A stretch of DNA of 64,000 nt from Minisyncoccota bacterium (GCA_035708165.1 DASSSZ010000005.1:40719-104718), one strand, 5' to 3'; counted from the first letter of the stretch, positions 10,884 to 63,331 are shown. Translations and numbers: made by a program. The notes: generated from the sequence alone by a model not told the origin.

Positions 10884-12617
10884 ATGTACATCAGCGACAC
10901 GCACCTCAAGGAATTCCTCCTCGATGCAGGCCTCGTCTCGAAGCAGGCGTTCGAGGATGCGGGCAGGAAGGCGAAGGAGAACGGCAACTCGATCGGCGAG
11001 GAGCTAGTCTCGGCCGGCGTCATCGGCGAGGACGAGCTGCGCCGCACGCAGGCGTACATCCTCGGCATCCCGTTCGTGAACCTCGCGGGCACGAAGATCG
11101 ATTACGACACGCTCTCTCTCATCCCCGAGCCGGTCGCGCGGCGCAACAACATCATCTCGTACAAGCAGGACGGCGACGACCTGCAGGTGGCGATGCTCAA
11201 TACGGACGACCTCGAGGCCATCGATTTCATCAAGAAGAAGACGCACCTCAAGATACAGCCGCGCCTCACGGATGTGGCCTCCATCAAGTACGCGCTCAAG
11301 CTCTACCAGCAATCGCTCAAGGACAATCTCGGCGAGGTCATCCGCAAGGAGACGGAGGCGATGGCGCAGATGCCGGACGGCGAGGAGGATCCGCGCAAGC
11401 TCGCAGAAGGCCTGCCGGCCGTGCGCGTGGTGGATACGCTGCTGCGCCATGCGATCGCGCAGAATGCATCGGATATCCATATCGAGCCGCAGGAGGAGAC
11501 ACTGATCATCCGCTACCGCATCGACGGGCTCCTGCATGATGCGATGATCCTGCCGAAGACGGCGCACGCCGGCATCGTGGCGCGCATCAAGGTCCTCACG
11601 AACCTGCGTCTCGACGAGAAGCGTCTCCCGCAGGATGGCCGCTTCGCGATCGAGGAGGCGGGGGAGCGTGTCTCATTCCGCGTTTCGATCCTGCCCACTT
11701 ACTACGGCGAGAAGATCGTGATCCGCATCCTGCGCGAGCGGCAGAGCGGCTTCACGCTCGAGAAGCTTGGCTTCCATGGCGACGCGCTCGAGCAGATCCA
11801 CGACGCGATGCGCCGCACGACGGGCCTCATCCTCACCACCGGCCCGACAGGCGCCGGAAAGTCCACCACGCTCTACACGCTGCTCGACCTCCTGAATACG
11901 CCGGATGTGAACATCTCCACGGTGGAAGACCCGATCGAGTACCAGATGCAGCGCATCAATCAGACGCAGGTCCAGCCGGATATCGGCTTCACATTCGCTT
12001 CCGGCCTGCGCAGCCTGGTGCGCCAGGACCCGGACATCATCATGGTGGGCGAGATCCGCGACGGCGAGACGGCCGCGCTCGCCATCAATGCCGCGCTCAC
12101 CGGCCACCTCGTGCTCTCCACGCTCCATACCAATAGCGCCGCTGGCGCCATCCCGCGCCTGATCGACATGGGCATCGAGCCGTTCCTCCTCGCCTCGACC
12201 TTGCGGGTGATCATCGGCCAGCGTCTCGTGCGCAAGCTCTGCGATGACAAGGCGGAGCGCCCGCTCACGCGCGATGAGACGAGCCGCCTCGAAGAGGCGT
12301 TCGATCTCGGCGTCGTCCTCAATGCCCTCAAGGAAGAGAAGGTCGTGGGCAAGGAAACGACCTGGAAGAACGTGCCCTTCTTCGGCCCGGCCGAGAACGG
12401 CAAGTGCCCGGACGGCTATTCCGGCCGCGAAGGCATCTACGAGGTGCTGAACGTGACGGAAGACATCAAGACGCAGATCACCGGCGGCGCGACGTCCGAT
12501 GACATCGCGGCGACGGCCAAGCAGCATGGCATGCTCACCATGGGCGAGGACGGCATCTTCAAGGCAGCACAGGGGATCACGACGATCGAGGAAGTGCTTC
12601 GTGTCATCAGCGAGTAG
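10884..12617 (+). CDS. pilB: type IV pilus / type II secretion assembly ATPase PilB/GspE family
   Basis: Walker A GPTGAGKSTTLY, Asp box and His box are present. A C-terminal tetracysteine motif is CDDK...C..C. An N-terminal GspE_N-like domain is present. Length is 577 aa. Confidence 0.95.
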   Translation: MYISDTHLKEFLLDAGLVSKQAFEDAGRKAKENGNSIGEELVSAGVIGEDELRRTQAYILGIPFVNLAGTKIDYDTLSLIPEPVARRNNIISYKQDGDDLQVAMLNTDDLEAIDFIKKKTHLKIQPRLTDVASIKYALKLYQQSLKDNLGEVIRKETEAMAQMPDGEEDPRKLAEGLPAVRVVDTLLRHAIAQNASDIHIEPQEETLIIRYRIDGLLHDAMILPKTAHAGIVARIKVLTNLRLDEKRLPQDGRFAIEEAGERVSFRVSILPTYYGEKIVIRILRERQSGFTLEKLGFHGDALEQIHDAMRRTTGLILTTGPTGAGKSTTLYTLLDLLNTPDVNISTVEDPIEYQMQRINQTQVQPDIGFTFASGLRSLVRQDPDIIMVGEIRDGETAALAINAALTGHLVLSTLHTNSAAGAIPRLIDMGIEPFLLASTLRVIIGQRLVRKLCDDKAERPLTRDETSRLEEAFDLGVVLNALKEEKVVGKETTWKNVPFFGPAENGKCPDGYSGREGIYEVLNVTEDIKTQITGGATSDDIAATAKQHGMLTMGEDGIFKAAQGITTIEEVLRVISE

Positions 12618-12718
12618 CAGTAGGCGCTTGCTGATCCTCTCTCGCCAATCATCCCATCCCATCCGCATCCACACGCCGTGCGTCTCGCTCGCACAGCGTA
12701 CGCGTATACTGGTAAGGA

Positions 12719-13936
12719 ATGACGCAGTACCGCTACACGGCGCAGAAGATGGGCGGGGAGACCTACACCGGCGCAGCGGAAGCGCCGGATCGCTTCGCGC
12801 TCTATGAGATGATCCGCCGCGAGGGCGGGAAGGTCGTCTCGGTGGAAGAGGACAGCACGAGCAAGAAGCTCTCCTTCGCGTACTGGAACGCGAAGATCGC
12901 CACCGTTCCCGAGCGGGAGAAGATCCTCTTCGCGCGCAATCTCGCGGCGATGCTGAAGGCAGGCCTCGCGCTCTCCCGCGCGCTCTCAGTGATCGAGCGG
13001 CAGACCAGGCAGGCGAAGTTCGCGAGCGTGCTCGCGCAGATCGGCAGCGAAGTGCGCCGCGGCACCTCGTTCCATGACGCGCTCGCGCAGTACCCGCACG
13101 TCTTCTCGCGCATCTTCATCGCGATGGTGAAGGCGGGCGAGGAGAGCGGCAACCTGCCCGGCTCGCTCGTCACCATCAGCGATCAGATGAACGAGTCGTA
13201 TACGCTCAAGAAGAAGGTGCGGAGCGCGATGATCTATCCCACCATCATCATCGTGGCGATCATCGGCATCGGTGCTGTGCTCCTCACGACCGTGGTGCCG
13301 ACATTGGCCGAGACCTTCAAGGAGCTCGGCGCTCAGCTGCCTGCGACGACGCAGTTCGTCATCAATCTCTCTGATTTCCTCGTGGAGAACACGCTGCTCG
13401 CGCTCGCCATCGCGATCATCGTCATCGTCGGGTTCATGGCGGGCCTGCGCACGACGATCGGCAAGCGGCTCTCGGCCCAGGTCGCCGTGCACATGCCGCT
13501 CATCGGTCCGGTCGTGAAGGAGGTGAACGCGGCGCGCACCGCCCGCACGCTCGGGAGCCTCCTGCACTCGAGCGTGGACATGCTGGCGGCCCTCGAGATC
13601 ACGACGGAGGTCGTGCAGAACCCGCTCTTCCAGGATGTCTTGCGCGAGGCGCATGAGGCTGTCGCCAAGGGCGATCAGCTGCCCGCTGTCTTCATGCGCC
13701 ATGAGAACCTCTATCCGCCGCTCGTCGGCGAGATGCTCTCGGTCGGCGTCGAGACGGGTCAGCTCTCGGAGATGCTGACGCGGCTCGCGGAGATCTACGA
13801 GGAGAGTGTCTCGACGACGACGAAAGACATGTCGACCATCATCGAGCCGTTCCTCATGCTCATCATCGGCAGCGCCGTCGGCTTCTTCGCGGTGGCCATG
13901 ATCAGCCCGATCTACTCGCTCTCGAGCGCGATCTAG
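12719..13936 (+). CDS. pilC: type IV pilus platform protein PilC/GspF family
   Basis: Two T2SS-F repeats flank three TM helices. It lies immediately downstream of pilB, preceded by RBS aagga and a TATACT -10. Confidence 0.9.
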   Translation: MTQYRYTAQKMGGETYTGAAEAPDRFALYEMIRREGGKVVSVEEDSTSKKLSFAYWNAKIATVPEREKILFARNLAAMLKAGLALSRALSVIERQTRQAKFASVLAQIGSEVRRGTSFHDALAQYPHVFSRIFIAMVKAGEESGNLPGSLVTISDQMNESYTLKKKVRSAMIYPTIIIVAIIGIGAVLLTTVVPTLAETFKELGAQLPATTQFVINLSDFLVENTLLALAIAIIVIVGFMAGLRTTIGKRLSAQVAVHMPLIGPVVKEVNAARTARTLGSLLHSSVDMLAALEITTEVVQNPLFQDVLREAHEAVAKGDQLPAVFMRHENLYPPLVGEMLSVGVETGQLSEMLTRLAEIYEESVSTTTKDMSTIIEPFLMLIIGSAVGFFAVAMISPIYSLSSAI

Positions 13937-13956
13937 CCTGTGCGGCGCAAAGAAAG

Positions 13957-13989
13957 GGCCCCTCGCGAATGCGAGGGGTCGTTTGTTTC
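13957..13989. terminator. rho-independent terminator (ggcccctcgc gaat gcgaggggtc + gtttgtttc)
   Basis: Perfect 8-9 bp GC stem followed by a T-rich tract. It sits between convergent pilC(+) and 13988..14251(-). Confidence 0.7.
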
Positions 13990-14251
13990 AGGCGAGCCGG
14001 AGCTCGTGGTGCCCGGCTGTGGTCGGGCCGATAAGGAGCGGATGCGCGAGGATCTCGCATCCGTCGCGCGAGGCCCGCACGAGTACGCGCGAGGCATCGC
14101 CCGGCATCGGCTCGATCTGCACGAGATCGCCCGGGCGCACGTCCGCGCCCGCCTTCGGCGGCACGCGGAAGCCGCCGCCATCTGCGAAGCACGCGAACGC
14201 GATCCCGCTCGGGCGCGTGTGCACCTCTGCGACCGTGGTCCGATAGCGCAT
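13988..14251 (-). CDS. small protein, possibly cupin-like (tentative)
   Basis: 87-aa ORF convergent with pilC, separated from it by a bidirectional terminator. The motif RPGDLVQIEPMPGD is weakly cupin-like. Confidence 0.3.
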   Translation of the reverse strand: MRYRTTVAEVHTRPSGIAFACFADGGGFRVPPKAGADVRPGDLVQIEPMPGDASRVLVRASRDGCEILAHPLLIGPTTAGHHELRLA

Positions 14252-14344
14252 GAAGCTTCTCCTGTGGTAGTGCTAACCGGCGCGAGCGTACCATAGCGGC
14301 CGCACGCGCCGCAAGCCTTCGCCGGAGTCCGGTACAATAGGCGC

Positions 14345-16063
14345 ATGCAACGCTCTGCCCGTGCGCGCGGCGTCACGCTCATCGACACGCTGATCGGGAT
14401 CGCGCTCATGCTCGTGGTCTTTGCCGGCATCTCGGAAGTGTTCGTCATCTCCATTGATGTCGTGACGAACGCGAAGGCGCGCATCGGAGCCCTCGCTCTC
14501 GCGAACGATCGCATGGAGTACCTGCGCAGCCTCGCGTATCTTTCTGTCGGCACGGAAGGCGGTATCCCTGCAGGGAACGTGCCGCAGGACGAGACGATCG
14601 AGCTCAATGGCGTCACCTACCTGCGCCATGCCTTCATCCGCTACGTGGACCTGCCGCAGGACGGGACCGGCGCTGCCGATGAGAACGGCATCACTGAGGA
14701 TGCGAAGCAGGCCGAGGTGACCGTCTCATGGGATGATCACGGGCGCGCCCGCTCGATGACGCTCACCTCGCTCTTCGCGCCGCCGGGCATGGAATCCACA
14801 GTGCCCGGCGGCACGCTCGAGATCGTCATCACCGATGCCTCCTCGACCCCGCTTCCCGGCGCCTCGGTGCATATCGTGAACGCAAGCACGACTCCCGCGA
14901 TCGACCTCGTTGCGGCGAGCGATGCGGATGGGGAGGTCGAGCTGCCCGGCGCGCCGGCATCGAGCGGGTACGATATCACGGTCGCGAAGGATGGTTACAG
15001 CTCGGCGCAGACCTATGCGGCATCCGCCGCATTGCCGAACCCGAGTCCGGGGGCGCTGACGGTCGCGCAAGGGAAGACCACGAGCGCGACGTTCGTCATC
15101 GACCGTACCGGCACGCTGACGATCCATACATACAAGCAGATAGCCGCGGAGAGCTGGGAGGATTCGTTCGCCGATGATTCCGGCGTCGCCACCTCGAGCG
15201 GTATGGCGATCGGGGATGGCGTCGTCACGCTCGCGTCCGGCACGGCGGCGGGATCGCTCACTGCCAAGGCCGTCGCGCCTGCGCACCTTGCCGGCTGGAC
15301 GAGCGCATCGTGGGAGGATACGCAGCCCGCCGGCACTGCGATCCGCTACCACCTGTACGCCGGCTCGACGCTCGTGCCGGACTCCGTGCTGCCCGGGAAT
15401 GTCTCCGGCTTCGCAGCCTCGCCGATCGACCTCTCCGGCATCGCGACGAGCACGTACCCCTCGCTCGCGCTCGCCGCGGATTTCACCGGCAGCACGACGA
15501 CATCGCCCTCGCTCACGCATTGGCAGATCGCGTACGAGGAAGGGCCGGACCCGCTGCCGGATATCGGCTATACGCTCACCGGCGAAAAGACGATCGGCCT
15601 CGATGCGGATGGCGCGGCCGTGGCCAAGTACAGCCGTTCGGCCGCGACCGATGCCGCCGGGACCGACGAGCTCGATCAGATGGAGTTCGATACGTACGAC
15701 CTCGCGGTTACGGCGACTGGCACGTACGACGTCGCGGAATCCTGCCCGCCGACGCCGTTCGCGCTTACGCCGGGAGCCGCGCTCGATGCTGCGGTCTACC
15801 TTGCGGACCATACGGCGGACTCGCTCCTCGTGGATGTGCGCGGGAGCAGCGGCGTGCTCCTGCCGGGCGTCGCGCTCACGCTCACGCAGGGCGCTTCGCA
15901 ATGGACGGCGACGACGGATAGCTGCGGCCAGGCGTTCTTCCCGGGGATTCCTGCGGGAAGCGCGTACGGGATCGTTGCGGCCGCGAGCGGGTACCAGCAG
16001 TATACGGAGAGCGGCATCACGGTCGGCAGCGGCTCGCGCCTCTCGATCGTACTCAGCCAATGA
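14345..16063 (+). CDS. large type IV pilin-like protein (prepilin-type N-terminus) with two carboxypeptidase-regulatory-like (prealbumin-fold) domains
   Basis: N-terminus RG|VTLIDTLIGIALMLVVFAG is a GFTLIE-variant. Two segments resemble CarbopepD_reg domains: PGASVHIVNASTTP...DADGEVELPG...GYDITVAKDGY and GVALTLTQGASQWTATTDSCGQAFFPGIPAGSAYGIVAAASGY. A TACAAT -10 lies upstream. Confidence 0.65.
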   Translation: MQRSARARGVTLIDTLIGIALMLVVFAGISEVFVISIDVVTNAKARIGALALANDRMEYLRSLAYLSVGTEGGIPAGNVPQDETIELNGVTYLRHAFIRYVDLPQDGTGAADENGITEDAKQAEVTVSWDDHGRARSMTLTSLFAPPGMESTVPGGTLEIVITDASSTPLPGASVHIVNASTTPAIDLVAASDADGEVELPGAPASSGYDITVAKDGYSSAQTYAASAALPNPSPGALTVAQGKTTSATFVIDRTGTLTIHTYKQIAAESWEDSFADDSGVATSSGMAIGDGVVTLASGTAAGSLTAKAVAPAHLAGWTSASWEDTQPAGTAIRYHLYAGSTLVPDSVLPGNVSGFAASPIDLSGIATSTYPSLALAADFTGSTTTSPSLTHWQIAYEEGPDPLPDIGYTLTGEKTIGLDADGAAVAKYSRSAATDAAGTDELDQMEFDTYDLAVTATGTYDVAESCPPTPFALTPGAALDAAVYLADHTADSLLVDVRGSSGVLLPGVALTLTQGASQWTATTDSCGQAFFPGIPAGSAYGIVAAASGYQQYTESGITVGSGSRLSIVLSQ

Positions 16064-16680
16064 CCACGCATGCTATGACGAGAAACGCAGGATGGAGAAG
16101 ACGGGGCATGACGTTCATCGAAGCGATCGTCTGGGTCGCGATCTTCACGATGGCGATGGTCGCCATCACGGAGACGCTCATCAGCTTCTACCGCGCCAAC
16201 GCCTATACGCTCGAACAGGGCGCGGCAGTCGAGAGCGCCCGTGCCGGTATCACCGCCACCGTCAAGGAGATCCGCGAAGCGCAGTACGGTAGCGACGGCG
16301 CATACCCGATCGTTTCGATCGCGCCGGATTCCTTCTCCTTCTACAGCGACGTGAATGACGATCCGTACGTCGAGGAGGTGACCTATACGCTCGACGGCAC
16401 GAACTTCGTGCGCGGCGTCCTCTCTCCTTCGGGCGATCCGCTCGCGTACGCGGGCACAGCTGCGACCAGCACGGTCTCCGATAACGTGCGCAATGCCGCG
16501 CAGGGCGTGAACGTCTTCACCTACTACGATAAGAATGGCAACGTGATCACCGATTACAGCAAGACGACGGATGTGCGCTACGTAGTGATCGACCTCGTGG
16601 TGAACGTGAACCCGTCGCGTGCGCCGCACGACCTCACGCTCGAGAGCAGCGCAGCGCTGCGCAACCTGGTCGCGCGATGA
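16060..16680 (+). CDS. type IV pilin / pseudopilin (minor-pilin-like)
   Basis: N-terminus RRG|MTFIEAIVWVAIFTMAMVA is a canonical prepilin peptidase site with Glu at +5. It overlaps the upstream gene by 4 nt (ATGA). Confidence 0.75.
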   Translation: MTTHAMTRNAGWRRRGMTFIEAIVWVAIFTMAMVAITETLISFYRANAYTLEQGAAVESARAGITATVKEIREAQYGSDGAYPIVSIAPDSFSFYSDVNDDPYVEEVTYTLDGTNFVRGVLSPSGDPLAYAGTAATSTVSDNVRNAAQGVNVFTYYDKNGNVITDYSKTTDVRYVVIDLVVNVNPSRAPHDLTLESSAALRNLVAR

Positions 16681-18116
16681 TGCGGTACGCTATGGCTATG
16701 CACGGACGGCGCACGCAGCGATCGGGCATCACGGTGATCCTCGTCCTCGTCTTCATGGGGATCTTCATGCTCCTCCTTTCCGGCATCGCGGGATACGTCT
16801 TCGTGGAATCGAAGGTCACGCGCGCGACGTACGTGCGCGAAGAGGCGTTCCAGATCGCCGAGAGCGGGCTCGAGTACTACCGCTGGTTCCTCGCGCACGA
16901 CCCGGGCGACCTCACGGACGGGACCGGCGGGGCTGGGCCGTACGTGCACGACGCGAAGGACGCGGACGGCGGCACTATCGGGAACTATGCGCTCACGATC
17001 AGCGGGAATCTCTCCTGCGGCGTGCTGCAATCCGTCGATATCGTCTCGAAGGGAACGTCCGCGGACGATCCCACGTTCACCCGCACGGTCGAGGCGCGCT
17101 ACGCGAAGCCGTCCGTAGCCGAGTACGCCTACATCATCAATGACAGCGTCTGGGCAGGCGACGACCGCCGGATCACCGGGCCGTACCACGCCAACGGCGG
17201 CATCCGCATGGATGGCACGAACAATTCGACGGTCGAGAGCTCCGTCGCCAGCTGGACCTGCACGAGCGCTTTCGGGTGCGATAGCAGCACCGAAGAGCCC
17301 GGCGTGTTCGGCACTGGCAGCGGATCGAAGTACTGGCAGTACCCGGTGCCGCAGATCGACTTCACCGGCATCGCGACGGATTTCCCCACGCTGAAGTCGC
17401 TCGCCCAGGCACAGGGGCTCTACTTCCCCTCGGTCGGCGGCGGGGATCAGGAGGGCTACCATCTCGTTTTCAATAGCGACAACACGGTCGATGTCTATAA
17501 GGTGACGCGCACGGCCTACATCTCGGCGACGGATATCACCGGGAATTCCAAGCGCGACTACGATACGATCAGGAACCAGACCTGGCTCGGTACGTACAGC
17601 ATCCCCGCGGGCTGCCCGGTCATCTTCGTCGAGGATAAGGCGTGGATCGAAGGAACGATCGCGAGCAAGGTCACGCTCATCGCCGACGACCCCGGCAGCT
17701 ACGCGCCGGAGATCCTGCTCTCGGACGATATCGACTATACGAAAGATGACGGTACGGTCGGCCTCACGGCGATCGCGGAAGGCGACATCCGCGTGCCGTA
17801 CGGGTCGCCGTACGACATGACCGTCCGCGGCATCTTCGTCGCGCAGACCGGCTACTTCGGCCGCGATAGCTACGGCACGGGCGACCACCAGGGGACGCTC
17901 ACGATGACCGGCTCGATCGTCAGCAACCAGCGCGTAGGGACCAAGTGGAGCTATGAATCCTGTAACTGGTGGGGGCAGTGCACCGAGACCGGCTGGTCAG
18001 GATACGATACGCGCGTCAACGCCTACGATCGCGCGCTCGCGAACGATCCGCCGCCGTTCACGCCGGCCGCAAGCCAGGATTCCGCGTTCGTCGTCTGGAA
18101 GGAGGACGTGCGGTAG
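16677..18116 (+). CDS. PilX-like large minor pilin
   Basis: N-terminal RSGITVILVLVFMGIFMLLLSG hydrophobic segment is followed by EEAFQIAESGLEY, resembling the PilX N-terminal domain. It overlaps the upstream gene by 4 nt. Confidence 0.55.
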   Translation: MMRYAMAMHGRRTQRSGITVILVLVFMGIFMLLLSGIAGYVFVESKVTRATYVREEAFQIAESGLEYYRWFLAHDPGDLTDGTGGAGPYVHDAKDADGGTIGNYALTISGNLSCGVLQSVDIVSKGTSADDPTFTRTVEARYAKPSVAEYAYIINDSVWAGDDRRITGPYHANGGIRMDGTNNSTVESSVASWTCTSAFGCDSSTEEPGVFGTGSGSKYWQYPVPQIDFTGIATDFPTLKSLAQAQGLYFPSVGGGDQEGYHLVFNSDNTVDVYKVTRTAYISATDITGNSKRDYDTIRNQTWLGTYSIPAGCPVIFVEDKAWIEGTIASKVTLIADDPGSYAPEILLSDDIDYTKDDGTVGLTAIAEGDIRVPYGSPYDMTVRGIFVAQTGYFGRDSYGTGDHQGTLTMTGSIVSNQRVGTKWSYESCNWWGQCTETGWSGYDTRVNAYDRALANDPPPFTPAASQDSAFVVWKEDVR

Positions 18117-22905: not shown

Positions 22906-23325
22906 ATGGCTGCGATCACGATCAATACCGATGGCGGCGCCCGGGGGAACCCCGGGCCTGCGGCCGCCGGTGCCGTGATCCGCGATGGCGACATCACGAT
23001 CGCGCAGGTATCGTCCTATCTCGGCGAGCGCACGAACAACTGGGCGGAGTACGAGGCGCTCATCCGCGGGATCGAGGCCGCGAAAGAAGCGCTCGGGGAG
23101 CGCCTCGGCGAGGAGCCGGTGGAGATCCGGATGGATAGCGAGCTCATCGTGAAGCAGATGCGCGGCGAGTACAAGGTGAAGGATGCGGCGCTGCGCGATC
23201 AGCACATGCGCGTGCGTACGCTTCTCGAGTCCATCCCGAACGCGACGTTCGTGCACGTGCCGCGCGCGCAGAACGCGGAGGCGGATGCCTTGGTCAACGA
23301 GGCGCTCGACGCCGCGCTCCTGTAA
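22906..23325 (+). CDS. rnhA: ribonuclease HI
   Basis: TDGGARGNPGPAAAGAV ... NWAEYEALIRGIE ... ADALVNEA catalytic-residue pattern. The ATG lies 3 nt after the upstream stop. The track ORF 22705.. is an extension. Confidence 0.8.
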   Translation: MAAITINTDGGARGNPGPAAAGAVIRDGDITIAQVSSYLGERTNNWAEYEALIRGIEAAKEALGERLGEEPVEIRMDSELIVKQMRGEYKVKDAALRDQHMRVRTLLESIPNATFVHVPRAQNAEADALVNEALDAALL

Positions 23326-23416
23326 GTTCATGCAGGGCTCAGGCGTCCGCAGTAGCCTATCCCCGGCATGACCCGATTCTCCATTCCATCAATCAACGTA
23401 ACGCAGCTGAAATCGT

Positions 23417-23743
23417 ATGACTGAAACAACTGAACGCAAGGTCTACCCCGGCATCGGCGGGTTCGTCGAGTTCATCCGCGAGCAAGGCGTCGTCGGGCTC
23501 GCGATCGGCTTCATCCTCGGCGGCGCGGTCAATACTGTCGTGCAGTCGCTCGTGAACAGCATCATCAATCCGCTCATCACTCTCGGCTTCGGCAGCATCA
23601 AGACGCTTTCGGCGTGGTCGGTCGGGCCGGTGGGCGTGGGTGCGTTCCTCTCCGCCCTCATCAATCTCATCATCATGGCCGCGGTGGTGTACTTCATCTT
23701 CAAAGGCTTGGGGCTCGACCACCTCGATAAGCCGAAGAAGTGA
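23417..23743 (+). CDS. mscL: large-conductance mechanosensitive channel
   Basis: FIREQGVVGLAIGFILGGAVNTVVQSLVNSIINPLI matches the MscL TM1 signature. Length is 108 aa. Confidence 0.85.
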   Translation: MTETTERKVYPGIGGFVEFIREQGVVGLAIGFILGGAVNTVVQSLVNSIINPLITLGFGSIKTLSAWSVGPVGVGAFLSALINLIIMAAVVYFIFKGLGLDHLDKPKK

Positions 23744-25368
23744 TGGACGAGGGCTTCGCGCGCGCCCCGGAGCGCGCGGGCAGGGAAGCAGCAGCGGTGT
23801 ACGGCGTGAGCGCGGCCATCCTGGCGGGGGTCGCGCTCCGTTCATTCGTGCCGTTCGGCGGGCCGGTCATGGCATGCGTGCTGCTTGCGGCTGGCTGCCT
23901 CGTGCTCGCATCCCTTGCCGCGCGCCGTAGAGCGTGGATGACGCTTGCGGCGGTTTTCCTCATCGCGCTCTCGCTGGGCATGTGGCGGATGGATGCGGCG
24001 TCGCATCTCTCCGATCCCGCCCTCGACCGCGCCCTCGGGCAGCAGGTGGCGCTCGAAGGGGTGATCAGCGCCGATGCCGACCGGCGCGAATCCTCGACCC
24101 TGCTCTCCGTGAGGGCGGACGCGCTCGTCATGGGAGGCGCGACAACGAGCATCTCAGCGACCGTACTCGCTGTCGCCGATCCCTACGCGCAGGGGGCGTA
24201 CGGGGACCGGGTCCGGATCGAAGGGCAGCTCGCCTTGCCGGAAGCGTTCGATACGGACACCGGCCGCCAGTTCGACTACCCCGGCTACCTCGCGGCGCAG
24301 GGGATCGCGTACGAGGTGATGGGCCCGGCGATAACGGTCATCTCGCATGGGCATGGCAATGGCATCATGGCCTGGCTGCTCGCGCTCAAGCATGGGTATC
24401 TCAGCGGGCTCACGCGCGCGCTGCCGTTGCCAGAGTCGGCGCTTGCGGGCGGCATCACGGCAGGGGACAAGCGCGCGCTCGGGAAGGAGCTGTTAGCTGA
24501 TTTCCGCACTGCCGGCATCGTGCACATCGTCGTCCTCTCGGGGTACAACGTGACGATCATCGCCGAGAGCGTGATGGCGATTCTCGGCTTCCTGCCGCGC
24601 GCGTTCGGCATCACGGCGGGCGCGCTCGGGATCGCGGCATTCGCCGCGATGACAGGCGGCAGCGCCTCGATCGTGCGCGCGAGCATCATGGCCGTGCTCG
24701 CGCTTGTCGCGCAGGCCATCCGCCGGCCGTATGCGATCCTGCGTGCGCTCGTGCTCACCGTAGTCGGCATGGTGCTCTGGAATCCGTTCATCCTCATCCA
24801 TGACCCGGGATTCCAGCTTTCGGTCATCGCGACGCTCGGCCTCATCTTCGTGACGCCGCTCCTCGTCGAACGCATGGGATGGCTCACGGAGCGCTTCGGC
24901 ATCCGCGAGATCGTCGGCGCGACGCTCGGGACGCAGCTCTCGGTGCTGCCGCTCCTCCTCTGGCAGATGGGGACCTTGAGCCTCGTCGCGCTGCCGGTCA
25001 ACGTCCTGGTCCTCGCGGTCGTGCCGGCGGCGATGCTGCTCTCGGCGCTCGCCGCGCTCGCAGGGATCCTGCTGCCGTGGCTCGCGCCGATGCTCGGGCT
25101 GCCGGCGTATGTGCTCCTTGCGTACATGCTCGCGATCGTGCACGCGAGCGTATCCGTGCCGTTCGCCGCGCTCGCGGTACCGCCATTCCCGGCTCCCGTC
25201 ATGCTGCTCTCCTACGCAGGGCTGATCGCGCTTCTCGTAGCGGTGCATCGTAAAAGGATCGCGGCCGCTTCCGTGAAAGAAGCGGCCGCGGCGCTATCCG
25301 GCGATCTTCTGACCGGGCTGTCGCCCGTGACTACCGGTGCGGAGACGGGCGGCGAGGCACAAGCGTGA
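23740..25368 (+). CDS. comEC: ComEC/Rec2 DNA-internalisation channel, membrane (DUF4131 + competence) domains only
   Basis: A multi-TM protein with VHIVVLSGYNVTIIAES...GGSASIVRASIMAVLALVA, the competence-domain signature. No MBL domain is present in this ORF. Confidence 0.85.
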   Translation: MMDEGFARAPERAGREAAAVYGVSAAILAGVALRSFVPFGGPVMACVLLAAGCLVLASLAARRRAWMTLAAVFLIALSLGMWRMDAASHLSDPALDRALGQQVALEGVISADADRRESSTLLSVRADALVMGGATTSISATVLAVADPYAQGAYGDRVRIEGQLALPEAFDTDTGRQFDYPGYLAAQGIAYEVMGPAITVISHGHGNGIMAWLLALKHGYLSGLTRALPLPESALAGGITAGDKRALGKELLADFRTAGIVHIVVLSGYNVTIIAESVMAILGFLPRAFGITAGALGIAAFAAMTGGSASIVRASIMAVLALVAQAIRRPYAILRALVLTVVGMVLWNPFILIHDPGFQLSVIATLGLIFVTPLLVERMGWLTERFGIREIVGATLGTQLSVLPLLLWQMGTLSLVALPVNVLVLAVVPAAMLLSALAALAGILLPWLAPMLGLPAYVLLAYMLAIVHASVSVPFAALAVPPFPAPVMLLSYAGLIALLVAVHRKRIAAASVKEAAAALSGDLLTGLSPVTTGAETGGEAQA

Positions 25369-25618
25369 GTTCCGCGAAGCGCTTCGAGAGCGCCGAGAAC
25401 AAGCGGCCCCACGGCGAGGCGGCCTCGTCATCGAGCGCTGGTCCTTGCACGATGCAGAACGTCGCGTGAATCTCGCGCAGCAAGGCGACATCCGTGATCT
25501 CGGGGACGATAACGACGAAGCACTCGGCGAGGAAGCGCCCCACGGCTGCCTGGCTGTGCGCATCGAGCGCCCGCGCGCGCTTGCAGATCAAGGCGAGGTG
25601 CGCTGAATCAGGATTCAT
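25331..25618 (-). CDS. hypothetical protein (95 aa)
   Basis: Strong RBS AAGGAGGT lies 7 nt upstream of ATG (MNPDSAHL...). Its 3' end overlaps the comEC 3' end convergently. Confidence 0.4.
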   Translation of the reverse strand: MNPDSAHLALICKRARALDAHSQAAVGRFLAECFVVIVPEITDVALLREIHATFCIVQGPALDDEAASPWGRLFSALSKRFAELTLVPRRPSPHR

Positions 25619-25690
25619 TCCTACCTCCTTCGAAAGGACTTGCGACACTATATGCATTCGGGAGGGAAAAGGGAAGCGGGGCTCCGGACG

Positions 25691-26296
25691 CTAAGCCTCG
25701 GCAGTGGCTGCGGCGAACCGATCTTCGATGACGCGCCAATTGAGATTCCGGAGGAATGCCTCGATATGCGTTCCTTTCTCGGCCGGCAGGTAGTCGACCA
25801 TGTAGGAATGCTCCCACATGTCCATCGCGAGCAGGATCTCCACGTCGGCGAGCATGCCGAGCTCGTGATCGGTCGTCCACCACACGTGCGGCGTGCCGCC
25901 CTTCTGGTCCCATGCGAGCGTGCACCAGCCGCTGCCGCGGCTCATGCCGACCTTCGTGAAGTGCGCGATGAACCCATCCCACGAGCCGTACTTCTCCGAA
26001 AGCGCATTCCCGAGGGCGCTCTCGCGGGGCGCCTCGGTGGCGCCGCCTTCCCACTGCGGGAAGTAGAACTCATGCATGCGCATGCCGTTGAACTCGAAGC
26101 CGAGCCTGCGGCGGACCGATTCGATCGCGAACGCATACTTCTCCGGATCTTCTGCGGTAAGGTCGGCGATCTGCGAGCGCAGGAGGTTGATCTGCTTCAC
26201 GTAGCCTTGGTAGAGGCCGAGGTGCACCTCGATCTGCTTGTCGGAGATACCCTCGAGGGAGGGGATATCGAACGTACGCGCTTCGTATGTATGCAT
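25691..26296 (-). CDS. sodA: Fe/Mn superoxide dismutase
   Basis: DMWEHSYMVDY and metal-ligand His/Asp pattern are present. Length is 201 aa. Confidence 0.95.
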   Translation of the reverse strand: MHTYEARTFDIPSLEGISDKQIEVHLGLYQGYVKQINLLRSQIADLTAEDPEKYAFAIESVRRRLGFEFNGMRMHEFYFPQWEGGATEAPRESALGNALSEKYGSWDGFIAHFTKVGMSRGSGWCTLAWDQKGGTPHVWWTTDHELGMLADVEILLAMDMWEHSYMVDYLPAEKGTHIEAFLRNLNWRVIEDRFAAATAEA

Positions 26297-26377
26297 AAGT
26301 GTACGGGCTAGGGATGCTATGCGTGCAGTATACCTCGCAAAGAAATGACCCGGAGGTGAACTCCGGGCCGTCTCGTT

Positions 26378-26653
26378 TCAGAATCGGATCTGGTGCGGCG
26401 CGAGCTTGCGCTTGCGGAACCGTGCGTCCCACCAGCCGGTCTTCCTGTGCGGATCGTCTTCGGGATGCTGCTGCATCCTCGCGTCGTATCCGGCACGGTA
26501 GGCCGGGTCGTCCGATTGCGGCGGCATGCGCTCGCGGGCATCGTAGTAGCCGAGATCCCGCTTGGTCGTATCGTCTACCGGCTCGGCGAGATGCGCGAAC
26601 CGGCGATCGGGTTCTATGCGGGGCGTGAACGGGTCCTGTACGTTGTTGTACAT
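26378..26653 (-). CDS. small low-complexity D/R/P-rich protein
   Basis: ATG (MYNNVQDPF...) is preceded by GGGAGA RBS. It is divergent from the downstream ComEC-MBL gene. Confidence 0.4.
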   Translation of the reverse strand: MYNNVQDPFTPRIEPDRRFAHLAEPVDDTTKRDLGYYDARERMPPQSDDPAYRAGYDARMQQHPEDDPHRKTGWWDARFRKRKLAPHQIRF

Positions 26654-26697
26654 CAGACATCTCCCATGACTCTGTCCCGATACTAGCGGGCGCGGCA

Positions 26698-27612
26698 ATG
26701 AAGCGCAAGCCAAGGGCTATACTCAGGGCAATGGTCCAGAATGGCGCGCGGAGCATGCGGCTGCTCCTTCTTACGCTTTTCCTGCTCGCGCTCGCTGCCG
26801 GCCTCATCTGGTACCTGGCATGGCCGTCGTTTCAGCCGCGGCGCCTCACTGTCGCGTTCCTCGACGTGGGGCAGGGCGACGCGATCCTCATCGAATCGCC
26901 TACAGGCACGACGGTGCTCGTGGATGGCGGCCCCGGCAACGCGGTGCTCGGACGCCTGCCGGAGGTCATGCCATGGTGGGATCGCTCGATCGACATGATC
27001 GTGCCGACGCACCCGGATGCCGATCACATCGCGGGCCTCATCGGCGTGCTCGGGCGCTACCGGGTCGGCCGCGTGCTGCAATCGAGCGTCGAGGGGAGCA
27101 CTGCTACCTGGCGCGCGCTCGAGTCTGCGATCGCTGCCGATCACGTGCCGACGATGATCGCGACGCGCGGGCAGGTCTTCGATCTCGGCGGGGGCGCGTC
27201 CCTCGAGGTGCTCTTCCCGGATCGCCTGCTCCCGCATACCGAGACGAACACCGCGAGCATCGTTGCGCGGCTCGTCTACGGCAGCACGTCGTTCCTCCTG
27301 ACGGGCGATTCGCCGCAGCCGATCGAGGACTACCTTGTCTCGCTCGACGCGGACGATGGGATGCTCGCGAGCACGATCCTGAAGGCCGGCCACCACGGGT
27401 CCGCGCACTCATCCTCCCCGCTCTATGTGGGAACGGTTGATCCGCAGGCGGTCGTCTACTCGCGCGGCTGCAAGAATACGTACGGCTTCCCGGCCAGCGC
27501 GACGGTCGCGACATTCGAGCGCTTCGGCATCCCTGCGCATGACACGTGCGAGGAGGGGACGCTCGTCTTCTCCTCGGATGGAACGACGGTCTCGCTCCGC
27601 ACGCTGCGCTAG
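26698..27612 (+). CDS. ComEC-type metallo-beta-lactamase domain protein (stand-alone, N-terminal TM anchor)
   Basis: Motifs LDVGQGDAILIESP...VDGGP, PTHPDADHIAGL and GHHGS match the ComEC C-terminal MBL domain. It is encoded separately, 1.3 kb from comEC. Confidence 0.75.
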   Translation: MKRKPRAILRAMVQNGARSMRLLLLTLFLLALAAGLIWYLAWPSFQPRRLTVAFLDVGQGDAILIESPTGTTVLVDGGPGNAVLGRLPEVMPWWDRSIDMIVPTHPDADHIAGLIGVLGRYRVGRVLQSSVEGSTATWRALESAIAADHVPTMIATRGQVFDLGGGASLEVLFPDRLLPHTETNTASIVARLVYGSTSFLLTGDSPQPIEDYLVSLDADDGMLASTILKAGHHGSAHSSSPLYVGTVDPQAVVYSRGCKNTYGFPASATVATFERFGIPAHDTCEEGTLVFSSDGTTVSLRTLR

Positions 27613-27618
27613 CTTCAC

Positions 27619-27647
27619 TTGATTTTCAAAAATACATATTGTATAAT
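27619..27647 (+). promoter_or_regulatory. sigma70-like promoter TTGATT-17bp-TATAAT, followed by AGGAGG RBS at ~27673
   Basis: Direct reading. Perfect -10, good -35 and 17-bp spacer, upstream of 27686 ORF. Confidence 0.6.
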
Positions 27648-27685
27648 GCAGACCGGTTCAAGCACGCGCACTCAGGAGGGAATCC

Positions 27686-28123
27686 ATGCGCCGCATCCTC
27701 GCTCTTTTCGCATCTGCTGCAGTCGCAGCCGTCGCCTTCGCAGGTACGGCCGCACCCGCCTCTGCCAATGATCTCGCAGGACGCGTGATCACCGGCATCG
27801 CCGGCGCCTTCATCGGCGTCGTGGCGGATCAGGCATTCTTCCAGCCGGCGCGGCATGCGACCGGGCTGATCCTGCCACAGCAGGCGTGCCACTATACCGG
27901 CTATTACGACCGGTGGGGGCATCTCCACCAGACAGGGCGGATCTGCACGCAGGTCTATCAGCAGCCGCAGCCGTGGCGCGGCAATGGCGGCTGGCACCGG
28001 AACGGGCATCCTTGGCCGCATGACGGCCATATGATCCTCGTGCCGGTCGTGCCGGGCCCGCAGCCGATCCCGCTGCAGCAGCACCGCTGCTGGCGGATGA
28101 ACGGGCACATGGTCTGTTCCTGA
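27686..28123 (+). CDS. small secreted His/Cys/Trp-rich protein
   Basis: Signal peptide with AxA site. Mature part is rich in H, W, P, Q with 4 Cys. Confidence 0.55.
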   Translation: MRRILALFASAAVAAVAFAGTAAPASANDLAGRVITGIAGAFIGVVADQAFFQPARHATGLILPQQACHYTGYYDRWGHLHQTGRICTQVYQQPQPWRGNGGWHRNGHPWPHDGHMILVPVVPGPQPIPLQQHRCWRMNGHMVCS

Positions 28124-28138
28124 TCGAAGCGAGCGCGA

Positions 28139-28169
28139 GCCGGGGCGTAATGTCCCGGCTTTCTTTTTT
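28139..28169 (+). terminator. rho-independent terminator (gccggg...cccggc + ttcttttttc)
   Basis: Stem plus U-tract directly after stop of 27686..28123. Confidence 0.6.
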
Positions 28170-28219
28170 CCGCGTGGGCGCTATAACTGCCCTAGGCGAA
28201 CGGCTACAAGGAGGTTCTC

Positions 28220-28534
28220 ATGCGTCTCGTCGGCCTTCTCGCGGTGCTCGGCTGCCTCATGTTCGCGACGGCCGCACCGGCATCCCAGATGATCGCGACC
28301 CGCAACGGCGTGCCGGATCCGCACGCGCGCGGGCACAATTGCGTGGCGTGCCACTGGCATGCGCCGCCCGTCATCATCAAGGGGGACGAGCACTGCGCGA
28401 GCTGCCATCTGCCGGCGACGCAGGGAGATGTCGCCGCCTCGCGCATGTGCCGGCGGTTCCCGTGCCCCTGGCTCTTCTGGGATACGGACGGCAAGCCATA
28501 CCCGTTCGGCAATCTCAATGTCGTGCGGCGCTGA
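28220..28534 (+). CDS. small secreted protein with two CXXCH motifs (candidate dihaem c-type cytochrome or metal-binding protein)
   Basis: AGGAGG RBS and signal peptide are present. Motifs CVACH and CASCH occur in the 104-aa protein. Confidence 0.5.
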   Translation: MRLVGLLAVLGCLMFATAAPASQMIATRNGVPDPHARGHNCVACHWHAPPVIIKGDEHCASCHLPATQGDVAASRMCRRFPCPWLFWDTDGKPYPFGNLNVVRR

Positions 28535-28547
28535 GCGCAACGAAAAC

Positions 28548-28580
28548 GGCCCGAGAGCATGCTCTCGGGCCGTTCCTTCT
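28548..28580. terminator. bidirectional terminator, perfect palindrome ggcccgagagc at gctctcgggcc
   Basis: Between convergent 28220..28534(+) and rpmB(-). Confidence 0.65.
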
Positions 28581-28596
28581 GCCGGGCGGCTAGGTA

Positions 28597-28839
28597 TTAG
28601 ATGAGTCCTGCCTTCTTCAGCGTCCGGAAGGCGCCATTCTTCTTGATGGTCTTGAGGCCCTTCGTCGAGACGGTGACGGAGACGCTCTTGCCGAGCTCCG
28701 GCACGAAGACCGCCTTCTTCTGGAGGTTGACCTGGCGGCGGCGCTTGCCTGTGAGGTTGAACTTGGTCGCGCGGGTCTCGTTGCTGTACCCGCCGCCCAC
28801 GCGCGAGCGCTTGCCGGTGATTGCGCAGACTTTTGCCAT
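28597..28839 (-). CDS. rpmB: 50S ribosomal protein L28
   Basis: MAKVCAITGKRSRVGGGYSNETRATKFNLTGKRRRQVNLQKK... is conserved in bL28. The track ORF 28597..29067 is a spurious 5' extension. Confidence 0.9.
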   Translation of the reverse strand: MAKVCAITGKRSRVGGGYSNETRATKFNLTGKRRRQVNLQKKAVFVPELGKSVSVTVSTKGLKTIKKNGAFRTLKKAGLI

Positions 28840-28866
28840 AACGCTCGCGATGGTACCATCGGAATC

Positions 28867-29508
28867 ATGGCAGCGCAACTCGCTCTTCTCATCAGCCTTC
28901 TCATCCTGATCTTCTCGATCATCCTGCATGAGATCGCGCACGGCGCCATGGCGAACTGGCTCGGGGACCCGACGGCGCGATTGCAAGGCCGGCTCACGCT
29001 CAACCCCATCCCGCATATCGATCCGTTCGGCAGCGTGATCCTGCCGGCGCTCCTCGTGTTCTCGCATTCGGGGTTCCTCTTCGGGTGGGCGAAGCCGGTC
29101 CCGTACAATCCCTACAACCTGCGCCGCGGCGGGCGCTTCGCCGAAGGATTAGTGGCGCTCGCGGGGCCGGCGACGAACCTCCTGCTGGCGCTCATCGCGG
29201 CCGCGACGGTACGCGTCCTTGCCGCGTTCGGGGCTGCCCCCGACACGCTCTCGCTCGCGTTCTACGCTCTCGTCATCAATGTGATGCTCGCGATCTTCAA
29301 CTGCATCCCGATCCCGCCCCTCGATGGCTCGAAGATCCTCGACATCTTCCTGCCCGCGCCGCTGCGGCTCTCATATGACCGGTTCCGGGCCATGCTCGAG
29401 CGCAACCCGTTCGCCGGCCTTGCCCTCGTCATCCTCTTCGCCGTCATTTTCGGCGACGCGATCAGCTCGGTGATCTTCGCTGTTGCGAATCTGCTCGCCG
29501 GCTCGTAG
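28867..29508 (+). CDS. site-2 protease family (peptidase M50) intramembrane zinc metalloprotease
   Basis: HEIAHG (HExxH) within TM1, a multi-TM protein, and LDGS motif in a later helix. Confidence 0.75.
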   Translation: MAAQLALLISLLILIFSIILHEIAHGAMANWLGDPTARLQGRLTLNPIPHIDPFGSVILPALLVFSHSGFLFGWAKPVPYNPYNLRRGGRFAEGLVALAGPATNLLLALIAAATVRVLAAFGAAPDTLSLAFYALVINVMLAIFNCIPIPPLDGSKILDIFLPAPLRLSYDRFRAMLERNPFAGLALVILFAVIFGDAISSVIFAVANLLAGS

Positions 29509-38124: not shown

Positions 38125-38292
38125 TCGCGGGATCTCCCGAAACGGCTGCACTATCGCTGAGCGATGGTACGCGTTACTGTGCTGGCGCGCATGCTGGTGG
38201 CATGCATACGGCCCGGAAGCGTATAGTGCAGTTATCCCCAACGCGAGATGCATGCGCCGGCAAAGGAAACTCATGCGCGGTACACTAAACGC

Positions 38293-61948: not shown

Positions 61949-63331
61949 ATGGCAGACGGGAACGCAGGAGGGAATACGGCGACGCTCACATGCTACGGCG
62001 GCACGGGCTCGGTCACCGGCGCGAATTTCATGCTCGATGCCGGATCGATCAGGATCCTCATCGACTGCGGGATGGAGCAGGGCGTCCACCATGGCGATGA
62101 TCCGAATGCGGCGCCGTTCCGCTACGATCCGGCGTCGGCAGACGTGCTCTTCATCACGCATGGCCATATCGATCATATCGGCCGCGTGCCGAAGCTCGTG
62201 CACGACGGCTACAGGGGGCCGATCTACTCCACGCCCGCGACGAAGGAGATCGCGGCGCTCATGTTCGATGATGCGCTCCATGTGATGCGGGAGGAAGAGC
62301 AGAAGTATCACCGGCCCATGCTCTACCAGCGCGCGGATGCGGATGCCGCGCTCGCGCAGTGGCAGACGCTCGAGTATCACGAGCCGCTCGCGCTGGAGCA
62401 CGGCATCACGGCTACGCTCTATGACGCCGGGCACGTGCTCGGGTCGGCTATGGTGTGCCTCGAGCGCGATGGCCGCCGGGCAGTCTTCACTGGCGACCTC
62501 GGGAACACGGATGCGCCGCTCCTGCGTGCGACCGATCCGTTACCGGCGCCGCACTACCTCCTCATGGAGAGCGTCTACGGCGACCGCCTGCACGAAGGCA
62601 AGGACGACCGCCGGCAGGTCCTTAAGGCGGCGATCGAGGAGGCGCGGCAGAAGCATGGCGTCCTCATGATTCCGGCATTCTCGCTGCAGCGGACGCAGGT
62701 CATCCTCTATGAGATCCATCGGATGATCGAGGCGGGGGAGCTTGCCCCGATCGACACGTACCTCGATTCGCCGCTCGCGATCAGGCTCATGGAGGTCTAT
62801 AGCCGATATGGCCGGTATTTCAATGATGCCGCGCAGGCGGATGCCAAGAAGGGGGATATCTTCTCGTTCCCCGGGCTGTCGGTCGTCGAGCGGCGGGAAG
62901 AATCGGCGAAGATCGAGCACCAGCCGGACCCGAAGATCATCATCGCGGCATCCGGCATGAGCCACGGCGGCCGCATCCTCGGGCATGAGCGCGAGCTCTT
63001 GGGGCGCGCCGACGCCATCCTGCTGCTTGTCGGCTACCAGGCTGCGGGCACGCTCGGGCGCGCGCTCGAGGAGGGCGTGAAGCACGTGCATATCGAAGGG
63101 CACAAGGTGCACGTGCGCGCGTCCATCGAATCGCTGACCGGCTATTCGGGGCACGGCGATCGCGATGAGCTCATGCATGTCGTCGAGACAGGCGCCTCGA
63201 CGCTCGAGCGCGTGTTCGTCGCGATGGGGGAGCCGAAGAGCGCGATGTTCCTCGCGCAGCGCATCCACGACTTCCTCGGGCTCGATGCCGTCGCACCATC
63301 TGAAGGCGATTCGTTCACGCTCGCGTGGTAG
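61949..63331 (+). CDS. metallo-beta-lactamase-fold beta-CASP ribonuclease (RNase J / CPSF-like)
   Basis: MBL motifs LIDCG…, HGHIDHIG, DAGHVLGS and beta-CASP C-terminal motifs are present. Length is 460 aa. Confidence 0.65.
   Translation: MADGNAGGNTATLTCYGGTGSVTGANFMLDAGSIRILIDCGMEQGVHHGDDPNAAPFRYDPASADVLFITHGHIDHIGRVPKLVHDGYRGPIYSTPATKEIAALMFDDALHVMREEEQKYHRPMLYQRADADAALAQWQTLEYHEPLALEHGITATLYDAGHVLGSAMVCLERDGRRAVFTGDLGNTDAPLLRATDPLPAPHYLLMESVYGDRLHEGKDDRRQVLKAAIEEARQKHGVLMIPAFSLQRTQVILYEIHRMIEAGELAPIDTYLDSPLAIRLMEVYSRYGRYFNDAAQADAKKGDIFSFPGLSVVERREESAKIEHQPDPKIIIAASGMSHGGRILGHERELLGRADAILLLVGYQAAGTLGRALEEGVKHVHIEGHKVHVRASIESLTGYSGHGDRDELMHVVETGASTLERVFVAMGEPKSAMFLAQRIHDFLGLDAVAPSEGDSFTLAW

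Follow-up and report, generated by a model that had tools for sequence, protein, structure and literature searches.

ComEC is the universal gate for transforming DNA, and current work holds that its OB fold must place the nuclease precisely at the channel mouth. The locus described here encodes ComEC as two separate genes. It lies in a stretch of 64,000 nucleotides from a Minisyncoccota bacterium (GCA_035708165.1 DASSSZ010000005.1:40719-104718), referred to below as the window. The host lineage of the window is Paceibacterota, within the Candidate Phyla Radiation (CPR), and its G+C content is ~65% over the 20-31 kb stretch that was profiled. Two genes on the plus strand, ~1.3 kb apart, code for the channel and for a separately membrane-anchored metallo-beta-lactamase (MBL) domain (Table 1). 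Identical proteins are publicly annotated as 'ComEC/Rec2 family competence protein' (channel protein, P0121) and 'MBL fold metallo-hydrolase' (MBL protein). The split is genuine, old and common among relatives, and represents a natural variant rather than an error.

Architecture of the channel and MBL proteins

A first-pass annotation of the window had assigned the DUF4131 and Competence domains, and no MBL domain, to the open reading frame (ORF) 23740..25368. This assignment is confirmed by Pfam, by a custom hidden Markov model (HMM) of the MBL half and by an AlphaFold 2 (AF2) model, none of which reveals an MBL family match, an MBL fold or a cryptic MBL domain in the channel ORF. The protein is laid out as three transmembrane (TM) helices (TM1-3), an OB fold, the Competence domain with TM4-TM10, a short cytoplasmic helix and a disordered tail. 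The Competence domain (PF03772) scores 147.5 bits for a Pfam cut-off of 23, and DUF4131 (PF13567) scores 73.9 bits for a cut-off of 31.6 over residues 42-197. Among the NCBIfam models, the protein passes TIGR00360, the ComEC_N-term subfamily domain (63.1 bits, cut-off 36.5), and matches positions 82-352 of TIGR00361 at 70 bits, below the equivalog cut-off of 190.05. An MBL domain on the same polypeptide, which characterizes most but not all ComEC/Rec2 orthologues, is thus absent from it. The AF2 model (predicted local distance difference test, pLDDT, 82) contains the three TM helices, a beta-barrel and a helical channel domain. The C-terminus extends 36 residues past the last TM helix, and residues 521-541 are disordered (pLDDT <50). 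A Foldseek search of this model against a PDB library without full-length ComEC returned weak OB-fold matches only, including the ComEC OB domain 9iew (E 0.07). The loop and helix of the OB fold rank among the most conserved segments of the family: F177, Y179, P180 and L183 are invariant in 21 homologues, and the FDYPGYL segment pairs in the alignment with 'ELDYRAYL' of the solved ComEC 30bt, which holds Y169 and Y172.

A stand-alone, TM-anchored MBL protein with the motifs VDGGP, HPDADH and GHHGS had likewise been proposed ~1.3 kb downstream, and both the motifs and the hydrophobic helix were located there. The ORF coordinates given for the two genes hold, except that the public gene calls begin at ATG 23743 and ATG 26731 instead; the latter start agrees with the N-terminal lengths of the homologues of the MBL protein. 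A short basic N-terminus is followed by one TM helix and then by the MBL domain. In Pfam the protein matches Lactamase_B (PF00753) at 43.5 bits. Its best NCBIfam match is TIGR00361, over positions 435-663 of 663 (84.9 bits, below the cut-off of 190.05), and the runners-up, Avs1a MBL (49.5 bits, partial), AHM and RNase Z, are all far under their cut-offs. A profile built from the protein and 19 homologues was searched against the whole PDB and retrieved ComEC chains only (six distinct sequences, best E 4.7e-47), with no non-ComEC sequence at E<=0.001. The AlphaFold model (pLDDT 92.4) consists of a helix at residues 3-34 followed by an alpha-beta/beta-alpha MBL fold. Its top Foldseek match is 9ic4, the MBL domain of Moorella glycerini ComEC (E 1.1e-25, TM-score 0.85, 31% identity), and its second is Pce (2bib, 1wra; E 4e-15, 16% identity). 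The isolated ComEC MBL domain itself likewise has Pce as its closest structural homologue (Stedman et al. 2025, PMC12455585). The MBL protein is ComEC-type, and neither a glyoxalase II nor another non-ComEC MBL: ComEC models and chains provide the best fit throughout. Its HPDADH is the H-x-D-x-D-H variant of MBL motif 2 that is specific to ComEC. The window holds a single channel copy (channel HMM) and a single MBL copy of this type (custom HMM of the MBL half), the sole further MBL protein being an unrelated beta-CASP enzyme at 61949..63331.

The catalytic motifs were compared over the MBL domains of 52 split, 15 fused and 16 unlinked loci. The G-Q-G-D of motif 1 is invariant in all three groups (52/52, 15/15 and 16/16 copies). 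Among the split copies, the D-H of HxDxDH, the TGD aspartate and H-H-G-S are each present in 52/52, the first histidine of HxDxDH in 47/52, and the aromatic residue of the N-x-[YF]-G-[HF]-P loop is Y or F in 50/52. The HHGS serine corresponds to S728, which contacts the DNA 5'-phosphate in the ComEC MBL domain (PMC12455585). In Legionella pneumophila, two 'pin loop' phenylalanines, F689 and F691, are essential for transformation (PMC12455585). The Y and F of KNTYGFP may be their counterparts, judging from the spacing to the HHGS serine (+27, +29) rather than from a direct alignment. The isolated ComEC MBL domain is an active, metal-dependent endo- and exonuclease in vitro, as shown for Moorella domains, and has no measurable DNA binding of its own, relying on the OB fold (PMC12455585).

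Both proteins align with the 801-aa full-length ComEC chain 30bt_A and cover complementary parts of it, the channel protein residues 4-481 (E 2e-29) and the profile of the MBL protein residues 516-790, with an alignment that begins inside a TM helix. This chain is taken to be the Neomoorella carbonis ComEC of Deselaers et al. (2026, PMC13539106), because the numbering of Y169/Y172, H598..H603 and S728 agrees with the papers of the Hospenthal laboratory. In L056, a fused Chloroflexota homologue of 807 aa (loci are designated here by L numbers), the channel protein stops at about residue 536 and the MBL protein starts at about residue 533. These alignments place the cut in the predicted cytoplasmic loop joining TM10 and TM11, right after the last helix of the channel protein. 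In the cryo-EM structure, ComEC has 11 TM helices, three of which precede the OB fold, and a short cytoplasmic helix separates TM10 from TM11 (PMC13539106). TM4-9 line the pore, with TM1-3, TM10 and TM11 at the periphery, and the map of one protomer lacks TM11 (PMC13539106). The MBL domain sits on a flexible linker, and the betaIV-betaV loop of the OB fold holds it in position through a small conserved contact (PMC13539106). The pore would stay intact, because the split parts TM1-TM10 and the cytoplasmic helix from TM11 and the MBL domain.

Positive charges are found at the N-terminus of the MBL protein (KRKPR...R...R) and after the last helix of the channel protein (HRKR). These clusters fit an N-in/C-out orientation of the MBL protein, and therefore its MBL domain would lie outside the membrane as in fused ComEC.

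Table 1. Coordinates of the two comEC genes, of their domains and motifs, and of neighbouring genes in the window.
Feature	Position	Strand	Remarks
ComEC channel subunit	23743..25368	+	541 aa; alternative GTG start 23740 gives 542 aa
Three N-terminal TM helices, aa 8-86	23764..24000	+	helices 8-35, 40-57, 63-86 in AF2 model
OB fold (DUF4131 beta-barrel, aa 101-201)	24043..24345	+	strands in AF2 model
OB loop and helix LPEAFDT...FDYPGYL	24235..24291	+	aligns with Y169/Y172 at channel entrance of solved ComEC
Competence (channel) domain, Pfam aa 240-504	24457..25251	+	model helices 262-519
Last helix: TM10 and cytoplasmic extension	25192..25299	+	helix 484-519; HRKR at 25246..25257
ComEC nuclease subunit (predicted)	26731..27612	+	293 aa; alternative ATG 26698 gives 304 aa
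TM anchor LLLLTLFLLALAAGLIWYLAW	26761..26823	+	hydropathy; aligns with TM11, last TM helix of full-length ComEC
MBL motif 1 region LDVGQGD	26860..26880	+	G-Q-G-D invariant
VDGGP	26920..26934	+	motif located in MBL gene
HPDADH, ComEC-type H-x-D-x-D-H metal-binding motif	27010..27027	+	equals H598-x-D600-x-D602-H603 of M. glycerini domain
TGDSP, invariant Asp presumed metal-binding	27301..27315	+	Asp in 52/52 split copies
GHHGS, two invariant His and Ser equivalent to S728 of solved domain	27388..27402	+	alignment
KNTYGFP loop	27472..27492	+	N-x-[YF]-G-[HF]-P pattern
sodA, Fe/Mn superoxide dismutase	25691..26296	-	Sod_Fe_C 74.3 bits
Small ORF, uncertain status	25331..25657	-	called 95 aa, 25331..25618; overlaps channel-gene end, convergent; third-position G+C (GC3) 0.79
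Small ORF, uncertain status	26378..26713	-	called 91 aa, 26378..26653; GC3 0.75
mscL	23417..23743	+	MscL 62.7 bits; stop TGA 23741..23743
RNase H gene	22906..23325	+	RVT_3 and RNase_H matches
PilB-like ATPase (pilB)	10884..12617	+	T2SSE 402.7 bits
pilC	12719..13936	+	T2SSF
PilX_N-like gene, 479 aa	16677..18116	+	PilX_N-like N-terminus

Distribution and history of the split

The nearest homologues of both proteins are themselves halves. The best 120 homologues of the MBL protein are all stand-alone, nearly all of ~280-320 aa, and the best 120 of the channel protein all combine DUF4131 and Competence without MBL (mostly ~480-560 aa, three of 422-453 aa). A search of 1.84 billion representative sequences with the MBL profile gave 12,489 matches at E<=1e-30; among the best 150 of these, 142 are stand-alone (~265-330 aa) and three are fused (~810 aa).

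A scan of one genome per species gave 80 related loci, which were classed with the HMMs of the two halves. The same split recurs in 49 of these 80 genomic loci. The halves are adjacent in 12, where the MBL gene starts at its own ATG, and are separated by other genes in 37, with a minus-strand sodA among the intervening genes in 21 of the 37. Fifteen loci carry a fused gene, 14 of them labelled as Chloroflexota classes and one as Ca. Oleimmundimicrobium. The remaining 16 have no channel gene in the available flanking sequence, which amounts to <=5.1 kb upstream in 12 of them. The channel gene lies upstream and on the same strand in every split locus (49/49). In about half of the adjacent loci the MBL ATG overlaps the channel stop, by 8-26 nt in L008, L022, L044, L047 and L073; L062 has an ATGA overlap of channel stop and MBL start, and in L082 the MBL gene follows right after the stop. 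Such overlapping stops and starts mark a true fission in which translation of the two genes is coupled. Far from being peculiar to this genome, the split is what a very large lineage normally shows.

A rough neighbour-joining tree of the MBL domains (BLOSUM distances, midpoint root) groups the fused Chloroflexota copies in one clade and the split forms of Patescibacteria elsewhere. The adjacent-split Dehalococcoidia loci L062 and L068 are nested in the fused clade, next to the fused L079, and therefore the same seam was probably cut at least twice, independently, as far as so crude a tree can indicate. The closest fused forms lie in Chloroflexota, which would fit the frequent placement of this phylum as the sister group of CPR bacteria.

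Two observations were made in passing on this set of loci. The organism labels of L027, L055, L064, L065 and many 'uncultured Candidatus Saccharibacteria' third-party annotation (TPA) loci ('Gammaproteobacteria', 'Saccharibacteria') clash with their content. These loci carry a split ComEC, many of them with the rnhA-comEC-sodA-MBL synteny of the Paceibacteria type. The labels on the TPA assemblies are probably unreliable, and the analysis did not rely on them. The metagenome-assembled genome L061, from Anaerolineae, encodes a 751-aa ComEC (6640-8892, +) whose C-terminal ~240 residues contain no MBL match or HxDxDH, together with a separate 291-aa ComEC-type MBL ORF (~9947-10810, +) located 1.8 kb downstream. 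It may combine a degenerate fused domain with an active-looking stand-alone copy.

Readings of the two-gene arrangement

Compared with canonical fused ComEC/Rec2 (B. subtilis; N. carbonis 30bt; TIGR00361), the two proteins of the window contain the same modules in the same order (TM1-3, OB fold, Competence channel, TM11, MBL) and share the H-x-D-x-D-H, HHGS and aromatic-loop residues as well as the D-Y-x-x-Y-L segment of the OB fold. They differ from it in being two polypeptides, divided in the TM10/TM11 loop, whose genes lie 1.3 kb apart and flank an opposite-strand sodA. The COG database separates ComEC into a membrane part (COG0658) and an MBL part (COG2333).

ComEC proteins of CPR bacteria without an MBL fusion have already been noted in print (fam000603, Meheust et al. 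2019, PMC6744442). The channel protein belongs with this group of DUF4131 and Competence proteins, of which SEML1_0777 of S. epibionticum (482 aa) is another member. In the available part of the fam000603 account, a separate ComEC-type MBL partner, its TM11 anchor and its downstream position, all present here, go unmentioned. In the cultured Saccharibacterium S. epibionticum, natural transformation depends on this 482-aa ComEC without MBL (PMC10633639). No ComEC-type MBL was seen in the annotation table of this organism, which is possibly incomplete and lists PF00753 only in RNase J. Separately, SEML1_0132-0134 of S. epibionticum comprise a 211-aa 'MBL fold' gene, L28(-) and a site-2 protease(+), and the window reads MBL(+) ... 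L28(-) - M50(+) over 26731-29508. The 211-aa gene was considered as an orthologue of the MBL gene and rejected: it strongly matches PF13483 (E 2e-23), a family that the MBL protein does not match. The shared position of different MBL families beside L28 and a protease is either a coincidence or a case of non-orthologous replacement.

A separate membrane-bound nuclease beside the channel is also known from Streptococcus pneumoniae, where the non-transforming strand is degraded by EndA (PMC12455585). However, EndA is unrelated to the MBL fold and pneumococcal ComEC retains a degenerate fused MBL, whereas the predicted trans nuclease of the window is the ComEC MBL itself. The Anaerolineae locus L061 looks nearer to the pneumococcal situation than the window locus does. 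ComEC domain profiles were surveyed by Pimentel and Zhang (2018), who scored the Competence-containing polypeptide only and found the 'DC' profile (DUF4131 and Competence) to be common in Cyanobacteria, Bacteroidetes and Alphaproteobacteria. DC-profile ComECs and the ComEC of Helicobacter pylori lack the MBL domain, as does the channel protein described here. They were treated as cases of domain loss or absence, whereas here the domain is kept as a neighbouring gene. Orthologues without the MBL domain are known to exist, and their competence has not been tested (Stedman et al. 2025, PMC12455585).

The same MBL subtype (HPDADH, GHHGS, N-x-Y-G-H-P loop) was also encountered in Lysinibacillus sphaericus OT4b.31 (L083:10013-11188, +), in a lipoprotein with the lipobox LLAGC and a C-terminal lamin-tail domain. 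In contrast with the MBL protein of the window, it has a lipobox instead of TM11, carries the additional lamin-tail domain and lacks a channel gene within 10 kb, and it is most likely an independent extracellular enzyme.

The two genes are rather probably the products of an ancient comEC fission and now form a two-subunit ComEC, whose assembly and nuclease activity are predicted here. In the proposed mechanism, for which the membrane topology, the physical association of the halves, the nuclease activity and the role in DNA uptake are all predicted, comEC would have been split in the TM10/TM11 cytoplasmic loop near the base of Patescibacteria. In Paceibacteria, an opposite-strand gene would later have been inserted between the halves, mostly sodA and sometimes a VTT/DedA-family gene, and the nuclease gene would therefore now be in its own transcription unit. 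The channel protein would supply the pore and DNA binding through TM1-3, the extracytoplasmic OB fold and TM4-10. The MBL protein would supply TM11 as an N-in/C-out anchor, with the MBL nuclease on the outer face of the membrane. The two polypeptides would reassemble within the membrane, and the MBL domain would dock onto the conserved OB-fold loop at the channel mouth and degrade the non-imported strand 5' to 3'. The other strand would enter via the pore, to be used in transformation and/or nucleotide salvage. The observations counted in favour of a two-subunit ComEC are the complementary halves, the tolerant seam, the intact active site, the ComEC fold, the gene order kept in 49/49 loci, the occurrence of the closest fused forms in Chloroflexota, the size of the family, the nearby pilus genes and the requirement of an MBL-less CPR ComEC for transformation.

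An artefact of frameshift or misassembly, or a decaying pseudogene, is effectively refuted as the origin of the split, and nothing was found in its favour. A simple frameshift is excluded because an intact opposite-strand sodA lies within the 1.3 kb separating the halves. Over 6,688 bp, the window agrees base for base with a Logan assembly (run SRR25158513) that a separate pipeline produced, possibly from shared reads. Both halves are full length with their catalytic and structural residues kept, and dozens of genomes share the arrangement, down to ~35% identity. The main challenge, though an unlikely one, comes from the possibility that the MBL protein is derived from ComEC and now acts as a lone membrane-anchored surface nuclease or phosphodiesterase that feeds environmental or host DNA into nucleotide salvage, the channel importing DNA without it or with another nuclease. 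Several facts that weigh against a two-subunit ComEC also count in favour of this possibility. Each of the two genes has a transcription unit of its own, with convergent and divergent genes interposed, and therefore their stoichiometry is not enforced. Four loci (L015, L024, L069 and L083) carry the MBL gene without any channel gene within 10 kb. The Lysinibacillus lamin-tail lipoprotein is a stand-alone ComEC-type MBL clearly outside ComEC. S. epibionticum transforms with an MBL-less ComEC and apparently without a ComEC-type MBL, and therefore a nuclease of this type in trans is not obligatory for DNA uptake in CPR bacteria. A lone nuclease would further agree with the in vitro activity of the isolated domain (PMC12455585) and with the general inability of CPR bacteria to make nucleotides (PMC6744442). 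Against the two-subunit ComEC alone, the binding of the channel protein to the MBL protein is itself a prediction, and synteny extends over the entire neighbourhood (rnhA upstream, L28 and M50 downstream), so that the linkage of the halves may reflect general gene-order conservation and not selection for co-location.

Nevertheless, the MBL protein has kept TM11 and gained no signal peptide or lipobox, and it has kept the aromatic loop that lies at the channel entrance in fused ComEC. The lack of measurable DNA binding by the isolated domain, which needs the OB fold now carried by the other polypeptide (PMC12455585), and the order and strand conserved in 49/49 split loci also argue against a nuclease acting alone. 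A non-nuclease role, for example that of a Pce-like phosphodiesterase on cell-envelope polymers, is suggested by the second structural match to Pce and is very improbable: the match to the ComEC MBL domain is ten orders of magnitude better and of higher identity, the genuine ComEC nuclease domain likewise has Pce as its nearest neighbour outside ComEC, and the HxDxDH variant and the serine that contacts the DNA 5'-phosphate are kept. The wider proposition, that fission at the TM10/TM11 loop is the ancestral and normal state of most Patescibacteria, recurred in Dehalococcoidia and left the nuclease in trans as a single-pass subunit, is put forward tentatively, with somewhat more doubt than conviction.

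In a literature search of incomplete coverage, no account was found of a separate TM11-MBL partner, of the position of the seam or of the two-gene arrangement, nor of the conserved gene order, the sodA/DedA insertion and the recurrence in Dehalococcoidia. Earlier work partly anticipated the arrangement. The effect on the field is incremental, considering that the domains are known, that the absence of fusion in CPR bacteria is published, and that MBL proteins are often automatically labelled 'ComEC'; the Joint Genome Institute (JGI) pipeline names many stand-alone ones 'competence protein ComEC'. A huge, deep-branching lineage in which the nuclease is a separate TM-anchored polypeptide would make the covalent link dispensable. 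The TM10/TM11 loop would be a natural seam, suggesting a simple split-protein design for a protein that is hard to handle. Surveys that score only the Competence-containing polypeptide would count fission as domain loss. If the wider proposition of an ancestral fission holds, many ComECs described as having lost the MBL domain would be two-gene ComECs, in CPR bacteria and possibly in other phyla with the DC profile, and a ready-made natural two-piece system would be at hand for separating channel from nuclease function. In CPR organisms, which are unable to make nucleotides, the separate MBL protein enlarges the equipment for DNA uptake and nucleotide scavenging by a probable surface nuclease.

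Neighbouring genes and other features of the window

The first-pass annotation had placed sodA and two small genes on the opposite strand between the halves. sodA is supported by its Sod_Fe_C match; the two small ORFs exist and have a coding-like GC3 (0.79 and 0.75), but they gave no Pfam or NCBIfam match and no homologue by BLAST in any related locus. A minus-strand sodA occupies the gap of the 21 genomic loci with both halves mentioned above and of L002 and L003, and is the immediate upstream neighbour of the MBL gene in five loci that end at a contig edge. The slot is filled instead by an opposite-strand VTT/DedA-family gene of ~200 aa in L021, L045 and L053 according to Pfam, and in L017, L023 and L050 by sequence similarity.

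Upstream, the mscL stop and the channel ATG share one base, and therefore the two genes are probably co-transcribed and translationally coupled. The RNase H gene belongs to a conserved block, a rnh homologue being found upstream of the channel gene in ~26 loci; L28(-) and M50 downstream of the MBL gene are also conserved among relatives. The closest relatives (57-60% identity) show the order RecJ - DUF975-like - RNase H - MscL - channel - ... - sodA(-) - ... - MBL - ... - L28(-) - M50. A sigma-70 promoter scan of positions 23200..28300 returned one site, no more than in shuffled sequence, and lends no usable support to a promoter of the MBL gene. Over the same interval, terminator-like hairpins are enriched (7 versus 1.9), and only some of them fit gene ends. 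A perfect 13-bp GC-rich hairpin at 25260-25290 falls within the 3' end of the channel gene, where the AAASVKEAAAA tail is encoded. It is followed on the minus strand by a T-rich run and is located 40 nt past the end of the small ORF 25331..25657; it is probably the terminator of this convergent ORF, embedded in coding sequence.

Type IV pilus genes are located 6-13 kb upstream of the channel gene, with PGK, HIT and RecJ between. The pilus cluster (10884-18116, +) also encodes a protein of 572 aa that carries CarboxypepD_reg domains. The 64-kb window yielded no tRNA gene and no Rfam family at the gathering threshold, despite its long ribosomal-protein/EF-G/EF-Tu region. At the window edge, a TraG-type P-loop protein (111-1004, +; 55.9 bits) may belong to a type IV secretion or conjugation-like apparatus, as has been described for Patescibacteria. 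Finally, a 613-aa protein (38248-40089, +) combines Gp34_trimer, a phage long-tail-fibre trimerization domain (98 bits), with a Peptidase_S74 chaperone domain and a C-terminal coiled coil. Such a fibre-like protein is unusual for a small CPR genome and may be a prophage remnant or a host-attachment fibre.

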